Shown: one piece after another, positions 279-32,000 of the stretch
How positions within the stretch are numbered: position 1 is the stretch's first letter
Layout: each line of letters starts with the position of its first letter
NCBI GenBank assembly: GCA_004563595.2
Contig: CP042461.1
Location: forward strand, 1,110,001 to 1,142,000
Length of the DNA stretch: 32,000 bases
DNA from: Candidatus Saccharimonadota bacterium
GTDB lineage: Bacteria; Patescibacteriota; Gracilibacteria; BD1-5; UBA6164
Reading direction: 5' to 3'
Translations under genes and position numbers: made by a program
The notes under the pieces: model-generated
Told to the model about the DNA's origin: nothing
The model's database searches: none
Seen by the model: only the letters and a program-made list of their open reading frames with translations

Positions 279-355
279 TTTCATATACAAGAAAAAACTT
301 TCACTTTTCATTGCTTTTCAATATAATAACTGCAATTAAAATTTTACAAATATAC

Positions 356-1558
356 ATGGCCCAAGTTGGAATCAGAGAATTTGATGCAAAAGCAATGTAC
401 TATGAATCTATATGAGAAAACTACGCTTGATATCAAATAAAAAAAACACTTGATATATCTCTCCTTTCCCCTGAAAAAAAGTATGTTATTAAACCTGATA
501 TGCTCTTTTGAAAAAGAGGAAAAAGAGGGCTTTTATGACTGAAACTTGATAAAAACTGAGTAAATAATTGGCTTCATAATAAATTACATTCAAAAGTAAA
601 TATAGACTGAGTTGATTGAGAATTAGATGTATTTTTAGCTGAAGAATTCTCCCCACTCACAAAAGAATATTATATATCTTTTTCTCAGGATCGAGACTGA
701 GACACTCTCACATTTTCTTCTGAATGAGGAATAGATATAGAAGAAAACTGGAATAAAACAACAAGTATTGTACTCTCTCCCCTTTCAAACCTTCACAAAA
801 CAGATCTAGAAAAAATTTGAATAGATGAAAGTTCCCTACAAAAAATTATTACGAAACTCTGGAACTTTTATAGAAATTATTGATTTGTATATTTAGAAAT
901 CAATCCACTATGAGTTGATAAAAATTGAAATTTTATAATCGTTGATATGGTTGCGAAAGTTGATAACTGTGAATTTTTTAGACAAAAAGATCATTGGAAA
1001 ACTCTAGAATTACCTCAAAGTTTTGGATATAAAGAAAATAAAAAAGAAAAATATATACGTGAACTTGATGCTCAAACATGAGCAAGTATGAAATTTAAAA
1101 TACTCAATAAAGATGCCGAAATTTGGACTCTCCTTGCTTGAGGATGAGGCTCCCTCGTCATTACTGATACTCTCTGAAGCTTATGATTTGCTGATGAAAT
1201 ATGAAACTACTGAGAACTCTCAGGAAATCCTGATAGAGAAAATACAAGAGAATATACCAGAGCCCTTATAGAACAAATGCTCGAAAATAATATCAAGTGA
1301 AAATATCTCATCATCGCATGAGCTATAGCAAATTTCACAAAAATTGATACTACCTTTGCTTGAATTATTGATATACTTGAAGAAAAAGCAGTAGAATTAC
1401 AAGAGCAAAAAATACAAATATTGGTAAGAAGAGGCTGACTCAATGATAAAAAATGATTAACTATTATAAAAGAGGCTTGTGATAGACTCTGACTTCCTAT
1501 AAAAATCGCAAATTCAGACATATATATGACAGATATATTAAAAGAAATTACATTATAA
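356..1558 (+). CDS. aclB: ATP-citrate lyase, ATP-grasp (beta) subunit
   Basis: 400 aa with TGA read as Gly. It is colinear with the N-terminal ~425 aa of ATP-citrate lyase: KPDMLFGKRGKRGLLGL, SSEGGIDIEENW, YLEINPL, EIWTLLAGGGGSLVITDTLGSLGFADEIGNYGELSGNP, IIAGAIANFT, VRRGG. By hand count there are 26 in-frame TGA codons, several at invariant Gly. Trp is encoded by TGG. Confidence 0.85.
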
Positions 1559-1569
1559 AATAAATATTC

Positions 1570-3360
1570 ATGTTTTCCAGAAACTCATTTGCAATAATAT
1601 ATTGATTACAAACTCAAGCAGCCCAAAAAATGCTTGATTTTGATTATCTGTGTGAAAGAGAAGCTTCAGTACTTGCTTTTATTAACGCAGGAAAACAAAA
1701 GATCAACCACAAACTCTTTTATTGAGACACTGAGATCTTAATACCTAGTTATCCAAATATAATTTCTCTTCCAGAACAAATCAAACAAAAAACTGACACT
1801 CTCGTAAATTTTGCATCTTTTAGAAGCGCAGCTCAGGCAACAAATGAAGCACTTGAAAGTAAAATATTCAAAAATGTTATTATCATCGCAGAATGAATTC
1901 CAGAAAGACAGACAATAGAGATCATAGAAAAAAATAAACAATACTGAGTCAATATTATTGGTCCTGCAACTGTTTGAGCCATGTCAGCATGAGAATTTAG
2001 AGTATGAAACACCTGAGGAAGTTTAGATAATATTGTCAGCTCTAAACTGTATCAAAAATGAAGTATATGACTTGTATCCAAGTCTGGTGGAATGAGTAAT
2101 GAAATGAGGAGAATAATCGCAGATAGAACAAATGGAACAAGTATATCTATTGCCCTTGGTTGAGATAAGTATAACATAATGACATTTACTGATGTCATGA
2201 AAAATTTTGAAGCAGACGATGAAGTAAAAATGATTGTTATGCTCTGAGAGATCTGATGAAGAGAAGAAAATAAAATAGCTGATATGATAACTGCCTGAGA
2301 AATCAAAAAACCAGTGGTTGCTTGGTGTATAGGAACCATTGGTGATACTCTCAAATGAGATGTACAATTCTGACATGCATGAGCAAAATCAAATGCAAAT
2401 GAAGAAACAGCCAATTATAAAAATAATAAACTAAAAAAGGCCTGAGCCCATGTTCCTGAAAGTTTTATAGATTTTTGAGATAAGATAGAAGAAGCATATC
2501 ACCAAGTTAATCCTGGTTTTCCTAAAGAAGAGGGGGCTAGGGGCTGAAGTTATAATATATCTGAAAAAATAAAAATCATGAACAATAGAAAATCTACTCA
2601 ATTTACATCCACTATTTCAGATGAAAGATGAGCAGAACTCACTTACAATAAAAGACCTATTTCTGAATATGCTCAAAAATGAAGTTTTGCAGATGTAATC
2701 TGAAACCTATGGTTAAAAAAAGATTTACCTGAATATGCACTTGATTTTATTAATACAACTTTGATACTTCTTGCTGATCACTGACCTGCCGTGTCAGGGG
2801 CTACAAACGCTATTATTACTGCAAGAGCAGGAAATGACTTAAAATCATCTCTGATCGCATGATTAACTACTATTTGACCGAAGTTTGGTTGAGCAATTGA
2901 TGGAGCTGCAAATTATTTTTCGCAAGCAGTACATGATAAAATTACTCCTGAAAAATTTGTTGAATCAATGAGAGAAGCCGAAATAAATATTCCTGGAATA
3001 TGACATAAAGTAAAGTCAAAGTTTAACCCAGATAAAAGGTGTGAAATACTCCTAAATCTGAGTAAAAAGTTCCCTCAAGCACAACATTTACAGTTTGCAC
3101 TTGAAGTAGAAAAACTCACTCTAGAAAAAAAATCAAACCTTATACTGAATGTAGATGGAATGGTTGCAGCAATGTTTCTAGATATATTTCAAGATATATG
3201 AATGGATTATGAAGAGATAAAAGAATATATTGATATCTGAATATTTAATGCCTTCTTTATCCTTGCAAGAACAACAGGTTTTATAGGACATATAATAGAT
3301 CAAAAGAGATCAAAAGAATGACTCTATAGAACACCTTGGGAAGATATCATGTATGATTAA
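1570..3360 (+). CDS. aclA: ATP-citrate lyase, alpha subunit (CoA-ligase plus citryl-CoA lyase domains)
   Basis: 596 aa, starting 11 nt after aclB. Motifs: IIAEGIPE, GPATVGAM, SKSGGMSNE, the catalytic-His motif VQFGHAGA, then the citrate-synthase-like part [49 protein letters not shown]. Many of the Gly residues in these motifs are TGA. Confidence 0.9.
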
Positions 3361-18002: not shown

Positions 18003-18046
18003 ATACACAAAAAAACCAGAATGAATATTCTGGTTTTTTTGTGTAT
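18003..18046. terminator. Bidirectional terminator with a 20-bp perfect stem
   Basis: ATACACAAAAAAACCAGAAT gaat ATTCTGGTTTTTTTGTGTAT lies between convergent rpoD and the surface-protein gene. Its last base is the first base of that gene's stop codon complement. Confidence 0.7.
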
Positions 18047-20832
18047 TAGTCAAATAATGGAGGAGGTGTCAGTTGAATTTTTTGGTTGTATTTTATTACA
18101 ACTGGATAAAAATATTCTTCATCTGTATTTACAAAAACTGAAGTTCATCATTTTGCAGACAGATCTGCAGATGTAATACTCCCATCTAAGTTACTATCAT
18201 ATATAAAGTATCTTCTTAAATAATTCAAATCATACTTTTGTGCTGCTTCTAGATCACATACTCCATTAAAATAATATGGACATCCTGGTGGAGTTGTCCT
18301 TGAAGCACCTATGGTATTTTCAGTAAATAGAGTTCCAAGGATATATAGTTGATCTTTTAGTATATCTTGAGTTCATCAACACGATGATGAGATTTCTCAA
18401 GAGGCACATATAAGAGTATTATAACTTAATAATGATTTATCAGCATACATAATAGCGTTTATTTCTGTTACACTTGGATCAACATAGATATTTCAACCAT
18501 TTCCCTCACTATCTTTTAAGATAATTATTCAAAGCAAATGAGATGATGGAGTAATATTTCATGTTATATATACATTTCAACCATATATAACTAATGTTTT
18601 ATTCTCTGATAAGACATTATAGTCTCATAGGTTTATTACTTTATTTTCTCCTGCATCCAATCATGAGAACTTATAATATTCAACTGTGTTATTCATAAGA
18701 TCTCGTTGTGATCAATCTCAACTATGTGGAACATTTTTTATTACTTCAAATACTTTTTTTCTCAAATCTCTTTTAAGAAGAGATTTCGTATTTTTTCAAA
18801 CTATTTGAATATCCTGATTACTTACGATCTGGTTATAATTTTCAGAGTGAATATTTCAATATATTTTAATTCATGTTTGTATTGTATTATCTGTTCATAC
18901 TCATCACCAATAATTTGATTTTCAAATAATATCTGAGTTATAGACAACTGGAATAGTTCAAATTCAGTTTGGAGCTGTAATATTATAGGATATATGCGTA
19001 GATAAGTATGTATTTTGAATATCATCAAGTAAACCTCATGATTGTGTGAGTAATGTATCTAGGTCATAACTGGTAATACCAAAGCTATTTTCAAACAACG
19101 ATGTATTGGATATATTTCACTGATTTCACTCAACAATATTTCATGCTACTCAACTCACTGATAGGTCTATAAGATTTGATATTACCCTTGATCAAGAGCC
19201 AAATTCAAGATAAATATTTCTCAAAGCAGGAGTTACTACTGATGCATTTCTTATAAGCTCAGTTTGAGAAGTCTGTCATGCTCATTCTACGAATCCATAT
19301 TCTAATAAATCTCATGTTATTTGAGTTTTGTATAAAGGCTGGAAAGAGAAAACTACATTACTACTTCCTATTAGCTGAGCCCCTATATTCCCTAAAGTTC
19401 AATTAATATCATATGTAATACTAGAAATACTAAAACTCGAAAATGGATCTGCAAACTCCTTCCCATTTGTTGCAGCTATATCGTATGTTGGTCAATACAC
19501 TTTAAAATCAAAAGGGTAGCTTCCATCTAAAGATGGTTGAGTATTAAATGAAGTATTTCCTGTTGAAAGCCTGTTACTATAACTCGTGTTTGATGGAATA
19601 TTTAAATATACAGCATCTTGTGTTTGAGTGTACTGATTTCTTCTTAAATTATTTATTACATCAAAATTCAGATCTATCGTTCTTCATATTCATGATGCTG
19701 GTATAATTTCATTTCAATATATATCCTCAAGCGTAATAATTAAGTTTTTTGAGCTTCCATCAGCAACATTTGCAGAATTTGATAGTTGATTTGTAGCATT
19801 ACTTGTAGATAAAATTGTATTTGCATATACATTATATGTAAAAGTCTTCAATGCAGTTACACTACTAGATCAATTTTCTATTCATATTTTATTTCCAGCT
19901 TCATCTTCTATATATGTAACCTTAAATCAATATTCTCTTCCTCCCGAAGATAATCTCATTAAATCAACATTTTCAGTAGAATGAGAAAAAATCAAACTTC
20001 AGGTATTCGAAAAATCAATGGTTGATAAATAATCTCCGGTTGCAGAGCTATAATCTTCAAAAAATCATTGTATTTTCACAATAGGAGATCATCATTGCTC
20101 AGAAACAACTACTGAAATATTTTGAGAATTTGTTGCTAACAAATCAGAGTTATCTATTGGTGTTGTATTTCATATATCTGAAGCTGTTGGAGCTGTTTTA
20201 TCAATTTTAACGATTGCTATTCATGAGTAGATATAACCATTTCAGGCAATATCTTTTCATCTAAAACAAATGTATCTCACCCCTTCTGTATTATATATTT
20301 TTCTATAGTCAGTAACCCATGTACCTCCAGAATCACAAGTAAATGGAACAACTGACTCTCTGTATTGATAACTACTAAAATCACATAAACTTCATCATGC
20401 ATCAAAACAGGTAACCGTAACCATTACATTTCATTTTGCCCATGTATCAGTAGTTGATACAGCTCCCCCAACGCTATATCCGATTAATGGGTTTGAGCCA
20501 TCCCATTTAAGACAATGCATCGTTCATGATCATGATCATACGAGTATGGCATTAGTAGTTCCTGAATTTAATAGATCAGTGTTAAAAGAAGGTGTTGGAA
20601 GCAAGCTTCATGAACTATCCGTCACAGATATATCATTATCATAACCAGGTGGTGTTCATCATGTTATATCCCCATCATCTGGGCATATTGTACAAGTGGG
20701 ATCACCTTGAGGACATATTGTAGTTCATGGGTCAGTATATATTACAGCTGTGTTCCCATACCAATTTGCATATGAAAGATTATAACTCCCTAACGAAAGG
20801 AGAAGTAATACGACTCATAATAACTTCCTCAT
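18046..20832 (-). CDS. Large secreted/surface protein (928 aa) with a Cys-rich N-terminal region
   Basis: Sec-type signal peptide MRKLLGVVLLLLSLGSYNLSYA. Cys-rich start TTICPQGDPTCTICPDDGD...MHCLKWDG...VTCFDAGGSLCDF...FTCDSGG...YICF. An Ig-like-domain hallmark, IVKIDKTAPTASD, is followed by long Ser/Thr/Asn-rich beta-like sequence. The C-terminus reads PPGCPYYFNGVCDLEAAQKYDLNYLRRY. All 46 sequence lines were hand-scanned with no in-frame TAA/TAG. An in-frame upstream ATG exists at 20877. Confidence 0.7.
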
Positions 20833-20900
20833 AAAAAAAATATATAGAAATAAATTATATCCTATATATTTTCTCATATTTTGAATATTTTTGCAAATAT

Positions 20901-22010
20901 CTAATACTCCAAATTTGGGTAATTTTTATTTACTTGTTTAAAATGTTCTATTTGTCTTTTTTTTGCACGTATTATGACCTCTGAACTAGGATTTAATTCT
21001 TTCATTAAAGTATCCATTCATAAAATCACATAATCTATTTCCTGAGATATTTCTTCTCATAACTTTGTTAGTTTTGCGTATTTTTTTATTACTTTTTGGA
21101 GAAATTTTGTTTTTATGTGATATAAAACTATTTTTTCTAACCACATCATATTCTCTCATAAATAGCCATTTTTATAAGCCTTCATAATAATATACATTGT
21201 TGGTGCAAAAGCGTGATATCCAAGAAATACTCCATAAATATGTCTCGCATCTGGTCTAATAGCAGAGTAATACTTTTCATCCTTATTATTGAGGATAATT
21301 GGATCAAATTGAAGTAATAGATTTAATTTATTATGCGATGATTCATGAATAATCGCTTCTAAATTATTGATTTCAGGGCAACTTGAATTAATGGTATATC
21401 CTAAATAAATATGACCAATACATTCATTATAACTTGCCGAGTTATGTATTGATTTCGCAGTTCCAAGTGGCACAATTTTCTGAATAATTTGATTGAGTTC
21501 ATCGTAAGTTCATTCATCTATTTGTTGCAATAATCTGAATGTTTTCTCGTAAACTCATAGCCATTCTTCTTCTCATCTTTCTCACCATCACAATATTCAT
21601 CAAGTTGTATGATGGTCAGGGTGTGCTTCAAAGATATTATAGGGATTATTATCTTTAGCCGTAAGCCTCACATTTGTTCATGAAATTTTTTGTCACTGAT
21701 TCATGCAAAGGTTTTTACTCCCAATTCACTCTTCTAAATATATATTTATTTCATTTTTTAATTTTTGTTGTTCTATAGCATAAAATTCCTCACTATCTAG
21801 ATCATTAATAATCAGAAAATTTATTATCCCAGATTGATCAGGGTTTAAGATAAAATCCCTATTTTCAACTATTAAGAGTTCCTCTATCTCTTCTGATAAG
21901 ATTCAGTTATTTCTTAACTTTTCTAAGTGAGAGATGAGCCTTTTATAGTATTTTTCCAAATATTCCTTTAATAAAGCTGAGTTTTTCTGTCAAAGTACGT
22001 AGTATTTCAT
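20901..22010 (-). CDS. HExxH-motif protein resembling aKG-HExxH-type peptide beta-hydroxylases (HEXXH motif domain, TIGR04267-like)
   Basis: 369 aa. MKYYVLGQKNSALLKEYL...IVPLGTAKSIHNSASYNECIGHIYLGY...LEAIIHESSHNKLNLLLQFDPI...YYSAIRPDARHIYGVFLGYHAF. ATG 22010 is the first ATG after TAG 22032-22034; TAG stop at 20901-20903. The assignment rests on the HExxH motif plus the downstream R-P-x-x-R/H-rich segment only. Confidence 0.65.
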
Positions 22011-22067
22011 TTTGATATTTGATGATAAAAACTATAATTGTGTATAATTATATCTTTCAATATTTTT

Positions 22068-23384
22068 ATGCAATATTTTTTGTACTTACTTACTATTCCC
22101 TTTTTATATTTTAACTTTAAAATTGTTCTTTCTGATCTTAAATTTAAGATCATTCCAAATAAATACTTAGCAAAAATACTCTATATGCTCCCTATATGGT
22201 ATGCGTATTTAATCCTATGATGAACAATTATAGTCTCAGATGTATGGTTCATTATCCTACAAATATTTCTATCTTTCATTATTTCATTTTGACTATATGC
22301 TTATGGTATATGGTCAGCTTGAGATGCAAAATACTTATTAGTATTATCGCTATTTATCCCTCATGTATGAACTCTTACATTTATATGAAACATTGCATTG
22401 TTAACTCTTACATATTTATTGTTATACTTTATTTACTTTTATATATGAAAATGTATACTTCAATCCACATATAGAAAAAGTTTATATTGAAATATTTTTA
22501 ATGACATTAAAGAAATATTTCAATATAAACTTCAGAATAAAACCTCAGAAAATTATAAACAAAAAATCATATATAAAATATCTTTATGAGTGATAAATTT
22601 TTTCGTTATTTTTATCATTTTTAGGCTCTTAAGAATTGCAACATTAAACTGGCTCTATAGTTCATGAACTGATTTTAGCATCATTTCAACAACTGTTTCT
22701 CAGCACAGCACCTTGGTAGTTTTACTTTTGATAATTATTGTATTATGAGCCTTCTATGTAACTAAGAAGATAATGTATTTTTTCAAAAGAATCTTACATG
22801 ACTTTTTTTGAACACAAAGTAAGTATCTCTATAATTGAGTCCTACTACTCAGTTTATCATGTTATATGCTATATGAATATGCATATCATCCCCTAGAAAT
22901 TACCCAGAGTATTACCCTTATTTTTACTGTTTATTTATCTATTTACCTATTTATTATCATACTCAAGTATGCCTCTAAGATTACTTTTCAATTATGAGAA
23001 GAAAAAAGTATTCAAGTAAGGTCCCTAAAGAAATGAGATATTATTGATAAAGTATATCTAAAAAATGTGATAAATAATGTAAATCACAAAAATAAAAAAA
23101 CGGTCGATAACTATAAAGAGGCTCTCAATATCATAAATAATTCCAGCTATCAACTCACCGTCGATGATGTAAAAAAAATACAATCTATTATTAAACAAAT
23201 AAATACAGATTGTAGTACTGATCGCATAATGGCATCTTGATTTCAGTCCATCAATAACATAAAAGTTATGAATACTTTTTCTTTTTGATGATATATCTGG
23301 TCTGGTTTTATGTTGAGTGTCTTCTTATGAAGTTATTTCTCAGAAAAAATAGTACTCTCCTTACAACACATGTTCAGAATATAA
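22068..23384 (+). CDS. A24-family (prepilin/preflagellin peptidase-like) membrane aspartic peptidase with a long C-terminal extension
   Basis: 438 aa. MQYFLYLLTIPFLYFNFKIVLSDLKFKIIPN supplies the first catalytic-Asp context. GLYAYGIWSAGDAKYLLVLSLF supplies the GxGD-type second Asp (the G preceding D is TGA). Several further hydrophobic segments and a ~110-aa soluble stretch follow (KKGDIIDKVYLKNV...). It is the only plus-strand gene in the right half. An alternative TTG start exists at 22038. Confidence 0.6.
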
Positions 23385-23406: not shown

Positions 23407-24135
23407 TTAACTTTTAGATGTAATATCTCGTGACTGTAGTATGTATATAGTCCCCCCTCTTACTGTGAATTCAATATCTTGTGCTTTGTCTAATATTCAT
23501 TCAATTTCCCTACATTTTTTATATAATAAATCACTAAAATTAATAAGAATATCTTCTTCAAAAAATAATGATTCAAATCTCGTACTTTGCTTCTTCTTCT
23601 CGCTTACTCATAGATAATTTTCTCCTCCATAAAAACTGTAAATTTTAAGTTTTGTTGTCTCTCTGTCAATTCCGAAACAAAATGGTTTTTTAATCTCTCA
23701 CTGTACTAGGGGTTCATTTATTCCTGGTATGATCTCAAAATAACACTCATTATTATGATGTTTTGTGAAACATACACCACTAAAATCTCCCACAATAAAT
23801 TCTTGTAAAATATATTTCTTTTCAAGCTTTCATATATCAAGGTTATGTAAATCTTTATAATGAGTATATTTTTCTGTTGTTTGTTCCTCACATATATTTA
23901 CCGCATATTTTAAATCTGCGTGAGTGTAAATTGGTGCATACGATTCAAATATTCATGCGAATGCATGACTACTACTATCTTCACATGAAAAAGAAGATCT
24001 AAGAATGAAAGGAGGGTCTAATTGAAGAGTAGAAATATCATGTATATCACTATATGTCTTACGTACAATAAAAGATGGAACATTAAAATTACTTTCCAGT
24101 AATAATTTCAGATTATCAGCTTTTGCTCAATGCAT
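23407..24135 (-). CDS. PEP/pyruvate-binding ATP-grasp domain protein (PPDK_N, PF01326-like), stand-alone
   Basis: 242 aa. MHGAKADNLKLL..NVPSFIV, FILRSSFSCEDSSSHAFAGIFESY, LQEFIVGDFSGVCFTKHH...IIPGINEPLVQGEIKKP, DIEFTVRGGTIYILQSRDIT. All four blocks of the PpsA/PPDK/rifampicin-phosphotransferase nucleotide-binding domain are present. Confidence 0.75.
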
Positions 24136-24140
24136 AAAAT

Positions 24141-25145
24141 TTATTTAATATTAATTTTCTTAGATACCGTATTAATTTCTAGAGTATCATCATTTTGACA
24201 AGAAAAAAATATACCTTCTGCTCCCAGCATTAAAGGAATTCATAACTCTCTACATGTAATTGCTGCATGGGATAATTCTGAACGAGTTTCAACACATATA
24301 CATTGTGCATTATAAAATGCCCTCAAAAATTCTGGATTTGTATTTTCTGCGACCATAATACTTCATTTATTTAAATCACTGGCAGATTCAACATTATAGA
24401 CTTTATGCACTTTTCATTCATAGCTATCTTGTTGTATTGAAATATTTATATCGTAACTTATACTCCTCCTCTGCGTTTTTTGAGAATCAAAATATTGTTC
24501 TATGCTAGAATATCACATGTTCAATATTTCTTGATAGAACTGAATTGCTCTTTTAAATTTAACAGCTTGAAAACGAAAAAAGTATTTTTCAAGTATGCTC
24601 TGGTATTTAAATGTTTTTTGCTGAAGATTTTTAACAATAGAAATATATTTAAGATATTCTGAAGTATAAAAATTATAATTCTCTTGAATATCACTTACAT
24701 CACAGTTAATCATATTAATAATTTCAGCTGATCAGAGCACATAATCATTATCACGTATTTTTTGAAATGAATATTCTTTTTCAAAATCAAGAGAAAGAGG
24801 TAATCATTCTACCATGATATGTTCATTTTTGAGCTCGTTATAGTGTTTTTGAGAACAAATAAATATATCAATTTCAAAACTTTTGTTCAATAATTTTTCA
24901 TACTGACATTGTAATAATCAATGTTTTTTAGATGGGTAAAATGCTCCTAAATCACATCAAATTGAAATAGGTATGTATATTTTAATAGATGATAAATCAA
25001 TATGTAATATATCAGTCAATCTCTTGCTGACCAATACTGGTAATAATCTATTATCTAATAAGATTCCCTGTCACTGAAAAAAATCATGCTGTAATAATGC
25101 AATAATTTCTTGTATTTGTTCTTTTAAACTAAGACTATGTTTCAT
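24141..25145 (-). CDS. PEP-utilising-enzyme mobile (swivel phospho-His) domain protein with an uncharacterised ~230-aa N-terminal domain
   Basis: 334 aa. The C-terminus reads KGSIMVAENTNPEFLRAFYNAQCICVETRSELSHAAITCRELGIPLMLGAEG, matching the PF00391 pattern G.ilV....P......a.aivt..G...SHaAI.aRElGIP. Its stop is 5 nt before the ATG of the ATG-grasp... of the ATP-grasp gene. Confidence 0.7.
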
Positions 25146-25147
25146 AT

Positions 25148-27046
25148 CTATTTTATAGGATTTAATTCACTATCTCAAAGTTTATCATAATAAGTAGTCC
25201 AAATTCATTCACACTTATCATACAGTTTACATCATTCACATTTTTTTGTTCTGACTCTTCATGTATTTTTTCTTCACTCTACAACATCATCGTTATAAAA
25301 ATCTGGTGCACTATGGGTCACATTTGTATATATATCAATCTCTTTTAATTCTGAAATATTATCTTCTAAGTAATCTTCAAAGTGGCATAAAGGAACATAT
25401 CTTACTCGATAGATCATACCATTTGCATTTCCCCAATCGAGAAGTTCTCTCATATGTGGTGAAGCTTCTGATATTTTTGGCATAAGTTCTTCAAAATTAT
25501 CATGAACCCCTCACACATTTGGATCAGCAAATATAAATTCAGAACTTCAAAAGCACTTAAGTTTTTTTACAAATTTTCAAATTCAAAGTACATTATCAAA
25601 ATTTCACTTCTCAATTGCTGTATTGGTACCAATGCTTTCATTTGGAAATCATAATTCTTGCCAGATTTGAATTCATTTTATGAGTTTATCAAACGCTCCT
25701 GGAACTGCTACTAACTTATCATGTAATTCTGCATTATCGGCATGAATCGAAAATACTACGCTATCAAGAATATCCATATCATAAAGTTTTTGAGAAAACT
25801 CACGGTCAGAAAATTTCAATCAGTTTGTTACCAAATATACATGACGAAAATGAAGAGATTTAATAAATTTCATGATCACAAAAAAATCTTTTCTGATAGT
25901 GACTTCTCATCATATAATCTCCAATATTTCAGTTCCATTTTGCTTTGCAATTAATATGTCTTTTAGGACTTCTTTCGTCGTTCTATTTATATTACGTTTA
26001 TTTAAATCTATACAGAACCTACACACAATATTACATCCATATCATACAAAAATAACCGTTTTTTTTCATGCAAAACTATCTTTTACATCTTCAATTGGTT
26101 TAAATCTAAAATTGTCAGTGTTTTCAATAATTTTTAATTTATCAATATCTTTTTTATAAAATGGCTGTATTTCTTCTTTTCAATTAAATTCACAATAGGT
26201 CTCGTGAATTCACATACAATACTTTGATAACTTACATGTACTACACTTCCCTGTAAAAGTGATTTCATGACTTGGAAGTGTTCTCCACATGTACTTCCAT
26301 AGTTTTTTTTCTTTTATGGTACACAGCGGAAAATGATACAATTTAAATTTATCTACTCAAAACTTTTCTCAATATTCCAAAAAAACCTTCTCATTTACTC
26401 ACATAACCTGAGTATAATTCATTTTTGTGAGTTTGATATTATCAATTGCTTGTCATTCAAACTCCATCATAATCGTAACAACACTATCAACCTGAGGAAA
26501 ATATTTATATATCAGTTCATACATTTTATCTAAAAACTTATAGTTTTGTCATTGAATAATAAGTCTTAATTCAAGAGTTTGATTATTAAATTTTTTATAT
26601 TTAAGGGCATTATGGATTCACTTCAATAGTTCTTCCCATGATCATTTTTTTCTCACAATTGCTTCGTGAGTTTCTTTGTTATAACCATGAATAGGAAATA
26701 CCAAATGATAATTTTCTAGGGTTGCTATTTGTTTCATAAAATCTATATTTGCAAACCTATCTCCATGCGTCAATTGTACCAGTGTTGATTGTGGAAATTT
26801 TTCTCTTATATATTGAAGTATTTTAAAATAATCTGGGTTCAAAGTTGGTTCACCTCATGTAATAGTCCAGTCATCTTTTAAATCAGGGAATCTATGAAAA
26901 TTTCTATCGTCACCTGATAAAAACCCATCAATTCTTGTTTTGATGGCCTCATAATGATAATCTTTTAATGTATATTTATAGTCAGCATCGTTTGAACACA
27001 TAGTACATTTGTGATCACAAGCTGGCCATAAGGCAATATCTGGCAT
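25148..27046 (-). CDS. Fused double radical SAM protein (two complete radical SAM modules in one 632-aa ORF)
   Basis: Module 1: WPACDHKCTMC (CX3CX2C, 26996-27019), ITGGEPTL, and the C-terminal Cys motif FPLC...GKCSTCKLSKYCMGIHETYC. Module 2: GYGCNIVCRFC (26012-26035), EIIGGEVT (GG is TGA TGA), YVPLCHF...KKCEGCKLYDKCEGIWTTYYDKLGDSELNPIK*. I hand-scanned every codion... every codon between the modules and found no TAA/TAG. The stop lies 2 nt before the next ATG. Confidence 0.75.
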
Positions 27047-27647: not shown

Positions 27648-28829
27648 TTATCTCACCTTTCACTCATCTATGTATAGCAAATAATTATAGCACAATTTCT
27701 CAATATTCATTAAGCCTTGGAATGCTTTACTTTCTCAAATATGATGCTCTCGATATAAAAAGGCTAAAGAAAACATAATCTCATCTGTTTCATCATTAAT
27801 ATATTTTCCATAATAGTTTAAAAAATCTTTCTTCGAGTTAGAAAAAAGAACATCTGACTTCAGATTACTTTCTAGAGAGAGGATTTGCATATTTTCATGA
27901 AAATTTAATTCAGAAAATTCATTGAAAAATTTTTGAACACTCTGTTTCAAGTATATGTAAAAATTTTCATAATCTCATAAAATGAGATTATTCTCTGCTA
28001 AAGTTTTATAAAATTTAAAATCATTTTTATTATTTATTTCTGCATCATGCAAAATTGTCATTAAAATATCTTGTGACTCATCATACTTTCATATCTTCTT
28101 TAAAGCTGCGGCTTTTCAAATAAATGGCTCAGGCTGACGATACTTATAATATGTTTCATTTAAAATAATAGATCCATTGAATAATGATATTGCTTTTTTT
28201 TGATCTCATAATGCAAGATAAATATATCCGAGCCGACTATATATAAAAGTAGGGATTTCAGAATGAGTATATCTTTTTTCAAGAATTTTTACGGCCTTAA
28301 TACAATACTTTTTCGCTGCACTCAGATACTTCTTATCTTTGTGCATTCTATATAATCGAGTTCCTAAAAAACGGGAGTATGCACAAAGCACATAAGGATT
28401 ATCAGTGTTGCATTCTAATAATTGTCTAAAAATTTCATTCATCTCTCGGCTTCATTTATTGTCATAGTATCGTACATACGCAGCGAGTGCATAGAAATTA
28501 TATTTATTTTCTTTCAATAATTCATCAACATTCTCTCATTGCTTCTGAGACATAAAGCATGGGTCAAGAATAGACTCATTTAAAAATAAAAAAATGTACC
28601 TCTTATCATATCAAAGAATAGACTCTCTACATTCACTAAAACCAATATCTAAATCCTGACGAGTATCTATATTCTTAAAATAAAAATATGGTCGTTGAAA
28701 CTTTTCTCTGCCTTTTAAATATCCCTTATATCAATGGTAATAAGCAAAATAATCTAAAAAAACCTCAAAGTCTTCTTTGTTCTTGAATTCTACCATACGC
28801 TCATATATATTATCAATAAATACACTCAT
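27648..28829 (-). CDS. TPR-like repeat protein
   Basis: 393 aa. TPR-like helical repeats, for example NPYVLCAYSRFLG, IYSRLGYIYLALGDQKKAISLFNGSI, FIGKAAALKKIGKYDESQDILMTIL. The first ATG at 28829 overlaps the upstream radical SAM ORF by 20 nt; an alternative ATG is at 28796. TAA stop at 27648-27650. Confidence 0.6.
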
Positions 28830-29679
28830 AGCAGCTTGAAAATAAGTCTCTTTTAGAATTAATTTCTTCTAATCTATTATAATAACGATCAAAATCTTTC
28901 TTTATTTTTTCATCGCTATCATACACATTTAACATATTTCTATTTTTTGATAAATAACATATATTCGTATGCATTGTTAAATCTCAATTTAACATAATAT
29001 TTATCTCATTCTCATCGTGAGTAAATGTCCCCAACTCATCTTTATATTTCATAAAGTAATAATACTTACAATTATCAGTTCATAACCTTGTAGAAACGAA
29101 TTTTTTACTATCATGAATGGGATATGGGTGTTTTCAAAATACTAAGTCTACGTTTTTAAACTTTTGTCATAGATAATATAAAAATTTAAATTCTGAGTTC
29201 TCAATGCTATATCTCACACTAAAAGGAGAAAAATAATTATGAGTATTGAGAAAATGGAATACTTTTACCCAATCTTTTTTATACTTTGTTACATTCATTT
29301 CATTTATATTTGAAACAAATGTATACTCAATGTTATAGATATTTTTTATTTCAACTAAATTTTCAAGGTACTCTTTATTATATGGGACAAGTCAAGATAC
29401 TTGAATAATAATCTTTAAATTTGGCTGAAATGAATGTACATACGTAATAAGATCAATAATATGCTTATTTGCAAACATATTACTTCAAAAAAAGGTAAAT
29501 CACTGTAAATAATCTCAGTCTACAATCAAAAAGGTTTTTCTAATTGACTCCTTGAGTTGAAGAATTTCTTCATCAGAATAAATACTCATTTCCATGACTC
29601 ATTCTTTACATGTATCACACCTCGTTATACATCCATGTCATAACTTAGTTATTAATTTTGGAACTTGGATTTTTAACAT
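28810..29679 (-). CDS. Small radical SAM protein, paralogue A (289 aa)
   Basis: MLKIQVPKLITKLGHGCITRCDTC (CX3CX2C). C-terminal Cys residues: TDNCKYY, LNGDLTMHTNICYL, SSCYECIYG*. The architecture is shared with the next two ORFs. Confidence 0.7.
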
Positions 29680-30613
29680 TATTATAATGGTTTACAAAGT
29701 ATGACTGGCAAAAATTACAAATATTTCAATCCTTTCATTTATTTTTATAATCATTCGACATAGACTCTAATGATTTTTTTAACACTATCGAATTCTCTAT
29801 TAAATCACTCTTTTTACTTTTAATATTTCATATTGAAAGTTCTTTGATTGATGAACAATATGGTCAATGTGGCATTATTTGATTTTCTGAAAAATCAAAC
29901 ATAAGAATATCTAGGTCCTTGCTCTTATCTGATATATAGTTCTTGGAAAGAAAAGAGCACTCCTTTTCTCATGAATATGAAAATAGCTCTGTTGAAAGGT
30001 CAATGTAACTTATAACTTTTGTTCATTCGCCTTCGGTAAAATACAATTTAGTGCCACTATCTAATAGTCATCTTAAAACATTTAAAGTTTTGTTTTTATC
30101 TACTCTATTCGAAGAAGAGTTTATTTCTCTATGTAAAATGAGTTTAGATTCTATATTTTTCCTTTTTAATAAATGTAATTTTGCAGGAATATCGTCAGTC
30201 AAAATATCCTCATTTAACCTTACAGATATTCAAAGTTTTATGGAAAAAAAAGGTTGAAAAATATCTATAAATTCTTTCACATCTGCATCGAAAATACCGT
30301 TTATATTTTTTATTTTTGTATATACCAATAGCTCATCTTTTCGCTTTAAAATCTTAAGTTTCATCAAAGTATAAATATATTTTTTAATGAAAGCTATGTT
30401 CGTTACAAAGTCTCAACACTGATTTAATGAAAGTGAATTATATGTAAGGTTATTTTTTTTTGCAAAATAAGAAAATTTCACCAAAAATTTGAGGTCTATT
30501 TTGCTTAATATTTCCTCGTTTCTGTTTGAGCTTATACAACTATAACATCATCTCGAACAATTATAATTATTAGGTATCGGATTCAAAACGAATCAATCAA
30601 TATTTATTTTCAT
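29645..30613 (-). CDS. Small radical SAM protein, paralogue B (322 aa)
   Basis: MKINIDGFVLNPIPNNYNCSRGCYSC (CX3CX2C; the G inside the motif is TGA). C-terminal Cys residues: ENQIMPHGPYCSS, GNICNFCQSY. The 3' end overlaps paralogue A by 35 nt in a different frame. Confidence 0.7.
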
Positions 30614-30621
30614 ATGTATGA

Positions 30622-31491
30622 TTATTGATAACTATACTTCCCTTTAATTATACATTTATAACAATTATGTTCAAATGTTTTTTCTTCATTATTCACGCTA
30701 TTAAGATATGATTTAAAGCTATTAAAATCAAATATTCTTTTCTCATTATCAAAAAATATATTTGATATTTTTAAGTCTGCCAAATAACACCTCGGAATAT
30801 GTGGTCTAATATCTCAATTTATAGATATTTCTAGGTCATAATATCAATCAAAGTCTTCAAAAATAATATCATTATTTTTGACTAAGAATGAGTTATGATA
30901 TTTGCAAAGTACATCTTCACTTGTTACAATTTCGTTATCATTATCAATCTGTAGTGCCTCAGAAATACTTAATTTCAATTGTTTATACCTTGTTAATAAT
31001 CGAAAATTTTTACTTTCTATTAACTCTATTTTTTTCTTATAATATATTTGAAATGAAATATTATCAATATAATCCTCCAAAAAAAATTCTAATAGCCTTA
31101 CCAATGATTTAAAATTATAAGTATTCAGGTTACTAATTGAAGTAGAAACATAAACTTGTATATTATATTTTTGTAATAAATATGCTAATATTTTATAAGT
31201 TCAAGGTTTATAGATATTTATATCTGAAATTTGAATTGCAATTCATCATTTTGGATCGAATTGATGTATATACAACATCAGCTCATCTATATCGCCGTAC
31301 AGTAATGGATCAACTCAAAAACAAAATATCTCACAGTCATTATTAAAGACTTGAAAAGTAGTTGCAATATTTTTCTTTAATTCAGACATGTCATAATACG
31401 TCTGAGAGGTATAATTATCACTACATCAAGTACATCAAGTATTACAACCTTTTCAAAGTCTGAAAAGGAGCCTTTTTGCTCCATATATCAT
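30622..31491 (-). CDS. Small radical SAM protein, paralogue C (289 aa)
   Basis: MIYGAKRLLFRLGKGCNTGCTGC (CX3CX2C with two TGA Gly inside the motif), CFGVDPLLYGDIDEL (GGEP-like), INGDIRPHIPRCYL, HNCYKCIIKG. ATG at 31491 lies one codon after the upstream gene's TAA. Confidence 0.7.
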
Positions 31492-31494
31492 ATC

Positions 31495-32000
31495 TTATAT
31501 ATTTATTAAATCACTCTGCCCATATGCAGAAATATACTCGTCAAATATTCCATAACAATCATCTTTAAAATCACACTTTCCACATTCTGGTAAATATGAT
31601 CTTCTTCCATAATCAGTATTATAGAGCTTATTCTCATATACCTCAGTTATATAATTTATCTTTTCAGTCTTCAGGTCAGCCCTTTTTTCTAAATCTCATA
31701 AAAATAAACATAGAGGGAATCAATCCCAGTATATTTTAATACCTTTTCCGTCAAACATTTCTATTGCTGATTTTATATTAAGAGAGGCTTCTTTCGGTGA
31801 ACAGAATAATGCATCATTATTTCAAGCACCAGAGGGTTCTAAAAGAGAAAACTTAATACTTAAGTTTTCATACGAAGTCTTTAAAAGACCATTCAAAGTG
31901 TCCTCTATGGAAGATAAATTATCAGAAATAACCACATAATTTAAAAATAATGAATCAAAACTTCTTTTTTTCAAAGAACCTATGATCTTTATGACTCATT
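31495..32000 (-). CDS. C-terminal part of a further radical SAM protein (5' end lies outside the window)
   Basis: ...IKIYWDGFPLCLFLGDLEK...RSYLPECGKCDFKDDCYGIFDEYISAYGQSDLINI*. The tail closely parallels module 2 of the double radical SAM protein (YVPLCHF...KKCEGCKLYDKCEGIWTTYYDKLGDSEL). The CX3CX2C motif itself is not in the window. Confidence 0.55.

Follow-up and report, generated by a model that had tools for sequence, protein, structure and literature searches.

Candidate accessory radical SAM maturases in an enlarged Hxs cluster of a Gracilibacteria-type bacterium with TGA as a glycine codon

A 32,000-nucleotide stretch of the genome of a Candidatus Saccharimonadota bacterium (assembly GCA_004563595.2, contig CP042461.1, positions 1,110,001-1,142,000 of the forward strand; hereafter 'the window') carries three adjoining genes for small proteins of the radical S-adenosylmethionine (SAM) type, which are named P0003, P0002 and P0001 in order of transcription. 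The reading we favour, and hold to be rather likely, is that this trio provides accessory radical SAM-type maturases for an enlarged His-Xaa-Ser (Hxs or HXS) peptide-maturation system in a Gracilibacteria-type bacterium that uses TGA as a glycine codon. Because the genes lie inside an enlarged HXS system, their products would most likely be extra tailoring enzymes for the repeat peptide of that system. The genome of this organism is 1.34 Mb in size, consists of one contig, and has a GC content of 29%.

Three conserved genes under purifying selection

Translation of the minus strand at positions 28810-31491 with table 25 (TGA = Gly) yields three open reading frames (ORFs) of 289, 322 and 289 amino acids, in agreement with an earlier note on this DNA; under table 11, no ORF longer than 86 amino acids is open in this region. 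Also as described in that note, all three products contain CX3CX2C near the N-terminus, H-x3-C late in the chain and CxxC at the end. The genes and their main elements are listed here.

30622-31491, minus strand: P0003, 289 amino acids, first transcribed gene of the trio, member of family F13 (small HxsC-related radical SAM proteins); table 25 ORF
31423-31446, minus strand: CX3CX2C of P0003 (C16, C20, C23; CNTGCTGC), presumed radical SAM [4Fe-4S] site
30652-30906, minus strand: C-terminal Cys/His set of P0003 (C196, H231, C235, C277, C280), presumed single auxiliary iron-sulphur (Fe-S) site
29645-30613, minus strand: P0002, 322 amino acids, middle gene, probable very diverged relative; table 25 ORF
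29645-29679, minus strand: 35-nucleotide overlap of the P0002 3' end with the P0001 5' end, in different frames
28810-29679, minus strand: P0001, 289 amino acids, second member of family F13, from a different subclade; table 25 ORF
28810-28829, minus strand: 20-nucleotide overlap of the P0001 3' end with the first ATG of the downstream tetratricopeptide repeat (TPR) ORF, whose start is uncertain

The same gene order, with the same motifs, is found in an independent organism, represented by a 2.1-kb Logan contig (L001) that carries the C-terminus of an HxsC-like enzyme, the orthologues of P0003 and P0002, and the start of a P0001 orthologue (79 residues). Amino acid identity between the two organisms is 58% for P0003, 53% for P0002 and 76% for the 79 N-terminal residues of P0001. 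Among 5.8 billion clustered proteins, the sole close relatives of the trio are those located together on L001, and a word-index homologue search returned a single relative of P0003 and a single relative of P0002. Single-sequence searching in 60 relatives gave no homologue, and a search of genome contigs with a 6-sequence alignment was likewise negative, probably because in-frame TGA breaks tblastn confirmation.

Nei-Gojobori dN/dS values from the comparison with L001 are 0.26 for P0003, 0.21 for P0002 and 0.17 for P0001, at dS values of 1-2 that are close to saturation. All three genes are under purifying selection, and they are real genes rather than reading frames that are open by chance.

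A rare family with invariant cysteine and histidine residues

P0001 and P0003 align over their full lengths with 25% identity (BLASTP, E=2e-18) and are genuine paralogues of ancient origin. A maximum-likelihood tree puts P0001 in a clade with P0008 and P0009 (support 100/99), and P0003 in another with its L001 orthologue (100/99). The placement of the two proteins in different well-supported subclades indicates that the duplication is old. A recent tandem duplication is thereby rejected, and the tandem duplicates of the earlier note are not recent copies.

An exhaustive HMMER search with a P0001/P0003 profile against 1.84 billion representatives (E<=0.001) yielded 44 proteins, mostly full-length at ~290-300 amino acids. 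Public databases list these as 'hypothetical protein' or give them no name, and the most distant match, P0047, is called 'organic radical activating enzyme'. PADLOC offers no model for the trio proteins. Of 401 genomes sampled across the class, 5 contain full-length family members, and these 5 belong to the window's own taxonomic family. P0001 and P0003 belong to a rare, unnamed family of radical SAM proteins of ~290 amino acids that has no curated model.

Seven columns are invariant in an alignment of 27 family members (27/27; P0003 numbering): C16, C20 and C23 of the N-terminal motif, and H231, C235, C277 and C280 near the C-terminus. A further cysteine, C196, is kept in 26 of the 27. The counterparts in P0001 are C17, C21 and C24, followed by C204, H237, C241, C283 and C286. 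The CX3CX2C motif occupies residues 17-24 of P0001, 19-26 of P0002 and 16-23 of P0003, and in the last of these C16, C20 and C23 are all intact, with a serine coming after the motif. The H-x3-C segments of P0001, P0002 and P0003 read HTNIC, HGPYC and HIPRC, and the terminal CxxC motifs read CYEC, CNFC and CYKC, respectively.

Elsewhere in the same genome (G000), a 348-amino-acid ORF on the plus strand (G000:C1:492318-493364) scores 32.9 against the family profile over 66 columns, and no other ORF outside the cluster has a noticeable score. It probably encodes a housekeeping radical SAM enzyme that is unrelated to the family.

Radical SAM-type features and predicted cofactor sites

Profiles for comparison were built from the radical SAM genes of related Hxs clusters. 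The family profile matches that of the HxsC-like enzymes with 97% probability (E=1.2e-10, 147 core columns), and matches the profiles of HxsB and of a 450-amino-acid radical SAM group with 24% and 35% probability, respectively. These findings suggest that HxsC-like enzymes are the nearest relatives of P0001 and P0003, and that the family either descends from them or is their sister group. Searches of the PDB with the family profile matched the radical SAM cores of QueE (the best match, E=1.5e-5), MoaA and BlsE, and the Pfam radical SAM model PF04055 matches 7 of the 27 family members at E<=0.01 (best E=1e-10). An uncontrolled iterative hidden Markov model search (--max) drifted into all radical SAM enzymes and was left out of the classification.

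AlphaFold 2 models were computed from shallow alignments. The P0003 model contains six beta/alpha units followed by a hairpin (E201-223) and a helix (H250-266), both with a predicted local distance difference test score (pLDDT) below 50. When this weak model was submitted to Foldseek, SuiB was returned first (E=3.7e-4), with EpeE, MoaA, LipA, LAM and BlsE in the top 15, and the radical SAM enzymes heading the list gave template modelling (TM) scores of 0.4-0.48.

The earlier note had proposed a twitch-like auxiliary site, and this idea agrees with the conserved C-terminal Cys/His set, of which H231, C235, C277 and C280 are invariant and whose size fits one cluster. Four cysteines and one histidine fit a single predicted auxiliary cluster in a twitch-like layout.

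The middle protein P0002

P0002 follows the same motif plan, with C19, C23 and C26 near its N-terminus and C219, H249, C253, C299 and C302 in its C-terminal part. Nevertheless, BLASTP, phmmer, and hhalign with shallow profiles revealed no significant similarity to P0001 or P0003. There is no match to P0002 in Pfam or NCBIfam, and searches that included the sampled genomes located no P0002-type gene outside G000 and L001. The earlier description of three paralogues is therefore statistically solid for P0001 and P0003, whereas P0002 is linked to them by profile alignment (E=1.1e-4).

In that alignment, the P0002 pair from the two organisms was compared by hhalign with the 27-sequence family profile, giving a probability of 57% over 164 columns. 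Residues C219, H249, C253, C299 and C302 align exactly onto C196, H231, C235, C277 and C280. None of 300 column shuffles reached the real score of 37.2, and the shuffled maximum was 26.3. When all 331 genome ORFs of 250-400 amino acids were ranked by their match to the family profile, P0002 came fifth, behind P0003, P0001, the HxsC-like gene and one other ORF, and it gave the longest collinear alignment of all matches from outside the family. Because the profile alignment is in register, the shuffles are clean and the genome ranking is high, we regard P0002 as probably related to the P0001/P0003 family, though very diverged from it.

Alternatively, P0002 might be some other cysteine-rich protein, in which CX3CX2C and C...HxxxC...CxxC arose by convergence or chance. 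The non-significant pairwise and database searches would be expected of such a protein, as would an hhalign probability of just 57% against a deep profile. Moreover, the maximum-likelihood tree gives the P0002 pair a very long branch and places it, with weak support (82/52), as sister to the family, and Foldseek matches to its model are uninformative. However, chance would also have to account for a collinear alignment of 164-191 columns that brings the five conserved C-terminal residues into register with almost the same spacing, for the failure of every shuffle to reach the real score, and for a rank just behind known radical SAM enzymes. The cysteine motif lies at the same N-terminal position as in the family, the model alternates strands and helices as in a (beta/alpha)6 arrangement, and the gene is flanked by two family members in an order conserved in two organisms. 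We consider non-homology unlikely, though it deserves to be kept in mind, and continue with P0002 as a probable relative.

The enlarged Hxs cluster

The trio is part of a minus-strand array that runs from HxsD through HxsB, an HxsA-like peptide, a membrane protein and an HxsC-like enzyme to P0003, P0002 and P0001, and then on to a TPR protein, a 172-amino-acid protein, a 632-amino-acid double HxsC-like fusion and a split phosphoenolpyruvate (PEP)-type dikinase. The upstream part of the array (HxsD, HxsB, repeat peptide and HxsC-like enzyme) lies mostly beyond the window edge, and the numbering below continues past 32,000 in the style of the window. This Hxs context, which supplies the likely substrate, was absent from the earlier note.

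35993-35424, minus strand: HxsD (TIGR03976, 64.6 bits; cutoff 50)
35214-33766, minus strand: HxsB (TIGR03978, 479 bits; cutoff 370)
33742-33371 (G000:C1:1143371-1143742), minus strand: 123-amino-acid HxsA-like peptide ending GHGSHGSHGSHGSHGSHGSHCSW; sub-cutoff matches to HxsA3/HxsA4
33377-32376, minus strand: 333-amino-acid membrane protein; ORF read from the genome
32391-31495, minus strand: 298-amino-acid HxsC-like radical SAM enzyme (TIGR03977, 88.5 bits, below cutoff); the 3' part of the gene, 31495-32000, is inside the window
27648-28829, minus strand: 393-amino-acid TPR-repeat protein, directly downstream of the trio; several weak TPR matches in Pfam, all sub-cutoff
25148-27046, minus strand: 632-amino-acid fusion of two HxsC-like radical SAM modules (PF04055, 102.7 bits; TIGR03977, 215; HxsC4, 141)
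23407-25145, minus strand: two genes at the distal array end, for PEP-utilising mobile-domain and PPDK_N ATP-binding proteins (PF00391, PF01326)

The association of the family with such clusters is exclusive among the members whose context is known. All nine full-length members of this kind (two each from G000, G232 and G346, and one each from L001, G033 and G176) lie in Hxs clusters, and in the other genomes the family genes are typically located a few genes after HxsD-HxsB-HxsA-HxsC-like. HxsB is much commoner than the family, being above cutoff in 29 of 61 related genomes, whose clusters contain up to ~14 radical SAM genes in tandem. The HxsC-like genes of the cluster score 58-122 bits with TIGR03977 in a six-frame genome search, below the cutoff of 267.9. 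In the HxsA-like peptide, a Lys-rich N-terminus and a hydrophobic segment precede a tail of the form (HGS)6-HCSW. No peptidoglycan-binding family was matched by this 123-amino-acid product in NCBIfam, and Pfam was not scanned for it.

Clusters in relatives show several further features. In two of these (L012, G007:C8:148500-168300; L013, G014:C12:98500-118300), ~12-14 consecutive CX3CX2C genes encode proteins of ~300 amino acids (HxsC-like) and ~450 amino acids, which is far beyond the four-gene system of Pseudomonadota. Homologues of the split dikinase sit in the Hxs cluster of one of these relatives (L012). ORFs at window positions 18046-23384 (943, 369 and 448 amino acids) have homologues at the distal Hxs cluster edge in L010, L016, L019 and L022, and may belong to the Hxs system or mark a conserved insertion site. 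Another double radical SAM protein, of ~570 amino acids and with CX3CX2C at residues 12 and ~317, is encoded in L019 (3087-4799), L022 (3781-5481) and L010 (10093-11799). It is more HxsB-like than the 632-amino-acid fusion, which indicates that fusion of radical SAM modules apparently occurred more than once. A search of the literature on Gracilibacteria and Absconditabacteria with radical SAM or HxsA found no link to Hxs or radical SAM clusters.

Proposed role and alternative readings

We hypothesize that the N-terminal CX3CX2C would hold a SAM-cleaving [4Fe-4S] cluster, that a [Y/F]-G-x-[D/N/E] site would serve in place of the GGE motif for SAM binding, and that C196...H231-x3-C235...C277-x2-C280 would hold one auxiliary cluster. 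Each enzyme would generate a 5'-deoxyadenosyl radical and then act at a distinct position, or in a distinct step, on the HxS-repeat peptide, for which the HxsA-like product is the candidate. P0002 would most likely be a third member that shares this plan but evolves fast. Because the proteins have no N-terminal peptide-recognition domain, the trio probably works in complex with HxsD or with the TPR protein, the latter being a possible scaffold.

Several observations speak against this assignment. The trio proteins fall below the Pfam radical SAM cutoff or miss it entirely: P0003 scores 26.4 bits with PF04055 (cutoff 29.5), and P0001 matches only Fer4_12 (16 bits). Likewise, the trio goes undetected by the curated HxsC model TIGR03977, to which P0001-P0003 have no match at E<=0.1, nor at E<=10 in a six-frame genome search. 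The lone NCBIfam match of P0003 is to the twitch radical SAM model NF033640, at 15.7 bits against a cutoff of 170. The family carries [Y/F]-G-x-[D/N/E] where GGE would be expected, and the residue before the third cysteine is non-aromatic in all three proteins (G, T, S). Either the non-aromatic CX3CX2C or the degenerate GGE could reflect altered or lost SAM chemistry. Furthermore, the structural models are of low confidence (pLDDT 52 for P0003 and 46 for P0002), the C-terminal alignment with HxsC is weak (E~0.01), and the homology of P0002 is moderately supported, with an uninformative fold search. Finally, the cluster encodes seven radical SAM domains and one obvious precursor, and some of these domains may consequently act on something else.

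Some of these observations might be explained if the trio were degenerate, non-catalytic relatives of radical SAM enzymes that serve HxsB and the HxsC-like enzymes as Fe-S or structural partners, chaperones or scaffolds. The low or missing Pfam scores, the degenerate GGE and the lack of an aromatic residue in CX3CX-phi-C would fit such proteins, which are small, carry no substrate-recognition domain, and are encoded beside several apparently canonical radical SAM enzymes. However, all 27 members, which span deep subclades, share the full set of CX3CX2C cysteines, and dead radical SAM paralogues usually do not keep every cluster ligand. The G-x-[D/N/E] site is also kept, its glycine being present in 23 of 27 members after W->G correction, and purifying selection acts on all three genes. 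We regard the loss of catalysis as improbable.

The ratio of seven radical SAM domains to one recognisable precursor also bears on a second alternative, in which the trio proteins are active enzymes with another target. This target might be the 172-amino-acid, TPR or membrane protein, a dikinase-related small molecule or cofactor, or another enzyme that requires activation. The split PEP-type dikinase suggests chemistry beyond peptide cross-linking, the best PDB sequence match of the family is QueE, a small-molecule enzyme, and the source name of P0047 refers to radical activation. Against this, an HxsA-like gene is no more than a few genes away from each family member whose context is known, and no glycyl-radical enzyme was seen in the cluster. 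Moreover, the family is closest to HxsC-like enzymes, and HxsC of E. coli has been linked to the maturation of HxsA (PMC13128918). A different substrate is therefore a poor prospect in our estimation, and action on the HxS-repeat peptide remains the reading that we favour.

A more far-reaching proposal can be offered tentatively. The trio family might be a lineage-restricted, minimal radical SAM family with a His-containing auxiliary site, present as at least eight subtypes in the Hxs clusters of candidate phyla radiation (CPR) bacteria of the Gracilibacteria type, where it would contribute, with up to ~14 other radical SAM enzymes per cluster, to multi-step radical tailoring of one HxS-repeat peptide. 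This is doubtful at present. If true, the product would be far more elaborate than the single +8 Da modification of E. coli HXS, and its function in cell-wall-poor episymbionts would possibly be other than blocking phage DNA entry. The function of HXS has been described only recently. The very small, unnamed family defined here has a clean set of invariant residues, which makes it tractable for the study of radical chemistry on His-Xaa-Ser repeats. The array also raises the question of why genome-reduced episymbionts spend ~12 kb on it.

Gene junctions and possible translational coupling

The junctions given in the earlier note were recovered, namely the 35-nucleotide overlap, the 20-nucleotide overlap (if the first ATG of the TPR ORF is used) and a 3-nucleotide spacer, which separates the HxsC-like stop codon from the P0003 ATG and is identical in L001. 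The P0001 ATG of L001 likewise lies within the end of the P0002 gene, with an overlap of 23 nucleotides versus 35 in the window. The overlapping P0001 start is supported because the N-terminus MLKIQVPKLITKLGHGC is conserved in L001. The first ATG of the TPR ORF falls inside the codons of the terminal C-Y-E-C of P0001 (window 28796-28829), and if translation began at the next in-frame ATG, at codon 12, the two genes would not overlap. The overlapping starts proposed earlier are thus upheld for P0001, whereas the TPR gene has this alternative.

Tight or overlapping junctions would suggest co-translation of the trio, and their conservation makes translational coupling plausible. The fixed stoichiometry that the earlier note derived from such coupling is overstated, given that overlap lengths differ between the two organisms. 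A promoter and terminator scan of the locus gave results at chance level and was uninformative on operon structure.

Use of TGA as a glycine codon

Scores for conserved genes of the window favour the reading of TGA as Gly over its reading as Trp. For example, the aldehyde dehydrogenase (Aldedh) gene yields a Pfam score of 432 bits with table 25 versus 348 with table 4, and the same shift toward table 25 was observed for the glutamate dehydrogenase, thiamine pyrophosphate (TPP) enzyme, DnaG and ATP-citrate-lyase-like genes. Table 4 was rejected for the window on these lower scores. In all called genes of the window (1-32000), TGA makes up most of the glycine codons (428 of 682, or 63%), and its share in the trio genes is 69-85%. 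The earlier note had drawn attention to TGA glycines inside the cysteine motif of two genes. These are present (G19 and G22 of P0003; G22 of P0002), but they are unremarkable where most glycines are encoded by TGA.

In public gene calls for this lineage, TGA was translated as Trp, and conserved glycines consequently read as Trp in database proteins P0004-P0048. In the family alignment column of P0003 G59, the SAM-site glycine, database translations show 14 'W' versus 9 'G'. Translation of this kind corrupts conserved glycines, including that of the SAM site, and thereby makes homology searches and family models less reliable, so that standard searches miss the family.

Two adjoining ATP-citrate-lyase-type genes (Citrate_bind, ATP-grasp, CoA-ligase and citrate synthase C-terminal domains) are located at window positions 311-3360 on the plus strand. 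Such a central-carbon enzyme is unexpected in a reduced genome of 1.3 Mb.

Comparison with known systems

The four-gene HXS system of E. coli blocks phage DNA entry (Li et al. 2026, PMC13128918). In that system, the maturation of HxsA requires both HxsB and HxsC, depends on radical SAM chemistry and involves, among other things, a +8 Da shift of the last HxS repeat; HxsC binds HxsD (PMC13128918). Nearly all known HXS systems (99.7%) are from Pseudomonadota and have the gene order D-B-C-A (PMC13128918). The array described here departs from this canonical arrangement: its order is D-B-A-(membrane protein)-C-like, and no fewer than nine more genes come after that.

Among individual enzymes, HxsC (TIGR03977) shares with the trio its cluster context, with HxsD, HxsB and an HxS-repeat peptide adjoining, as well as a length of ~290-300 amino acids, an N-terminal CX3CX2C and the absence of a leader-recognition domain. 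The profile similarity of the radical SAM cores noted above points in the same direction. The C-terminal P/H-x-C...CxxC pattern of HxsC is collinear with the family. The conserved cysteines of the local HxsC-like proteins are C228 (in P-x-C) and those of C270-x2-C273-x5-C279, and the weak alignment pairs C235, C277 and C280 of the family with C228, C270 and C273. In contrast to HxsC, the family has no counterpart of the final cysteine (C279), and instead possesses C196 and the invariant H231. It also differs in the absence of a match to the HxsC4 model and in the replacement of GGE by G-x-[D/N/E]. Furthermore, the trio genes are present in addition to HxsC-like enzymes, and are not substitutes for them.

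Twitch enzymes such as BtrN and MoaA resemble the family in having a small radical SAM core with a short C-terminal extension, and MoaA is among both the sequence matches and the fold matches of the family. In the low-confidence model, the ligand order (a cysteine, a second cysteine after a beta-hairpin, and CxxC after a helix) would be that of one auxiliary cluster. BtrN has a C...C...CxxC ligand set. The family's invariant histidine four residues before the second cysteine is not known from BtrN or MoaA.

SPASM maturases, such as SuiB and the HxsB of this cluster, have a seven-Cys motif, two auxiliary [4Fe-4S] clusters and usually an N-terminal RiPP recognition element (RRE), whereas the family has four cysteines and one histidine and no N-terminal domain, and its profile similarity to HxsB is weak (24%). 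The trio would nevertheless be like SPASM maturases in comprising peptide-modifying radical SAM enzymes encoded beside their precursor, and SuiB is the top Foldseek match.

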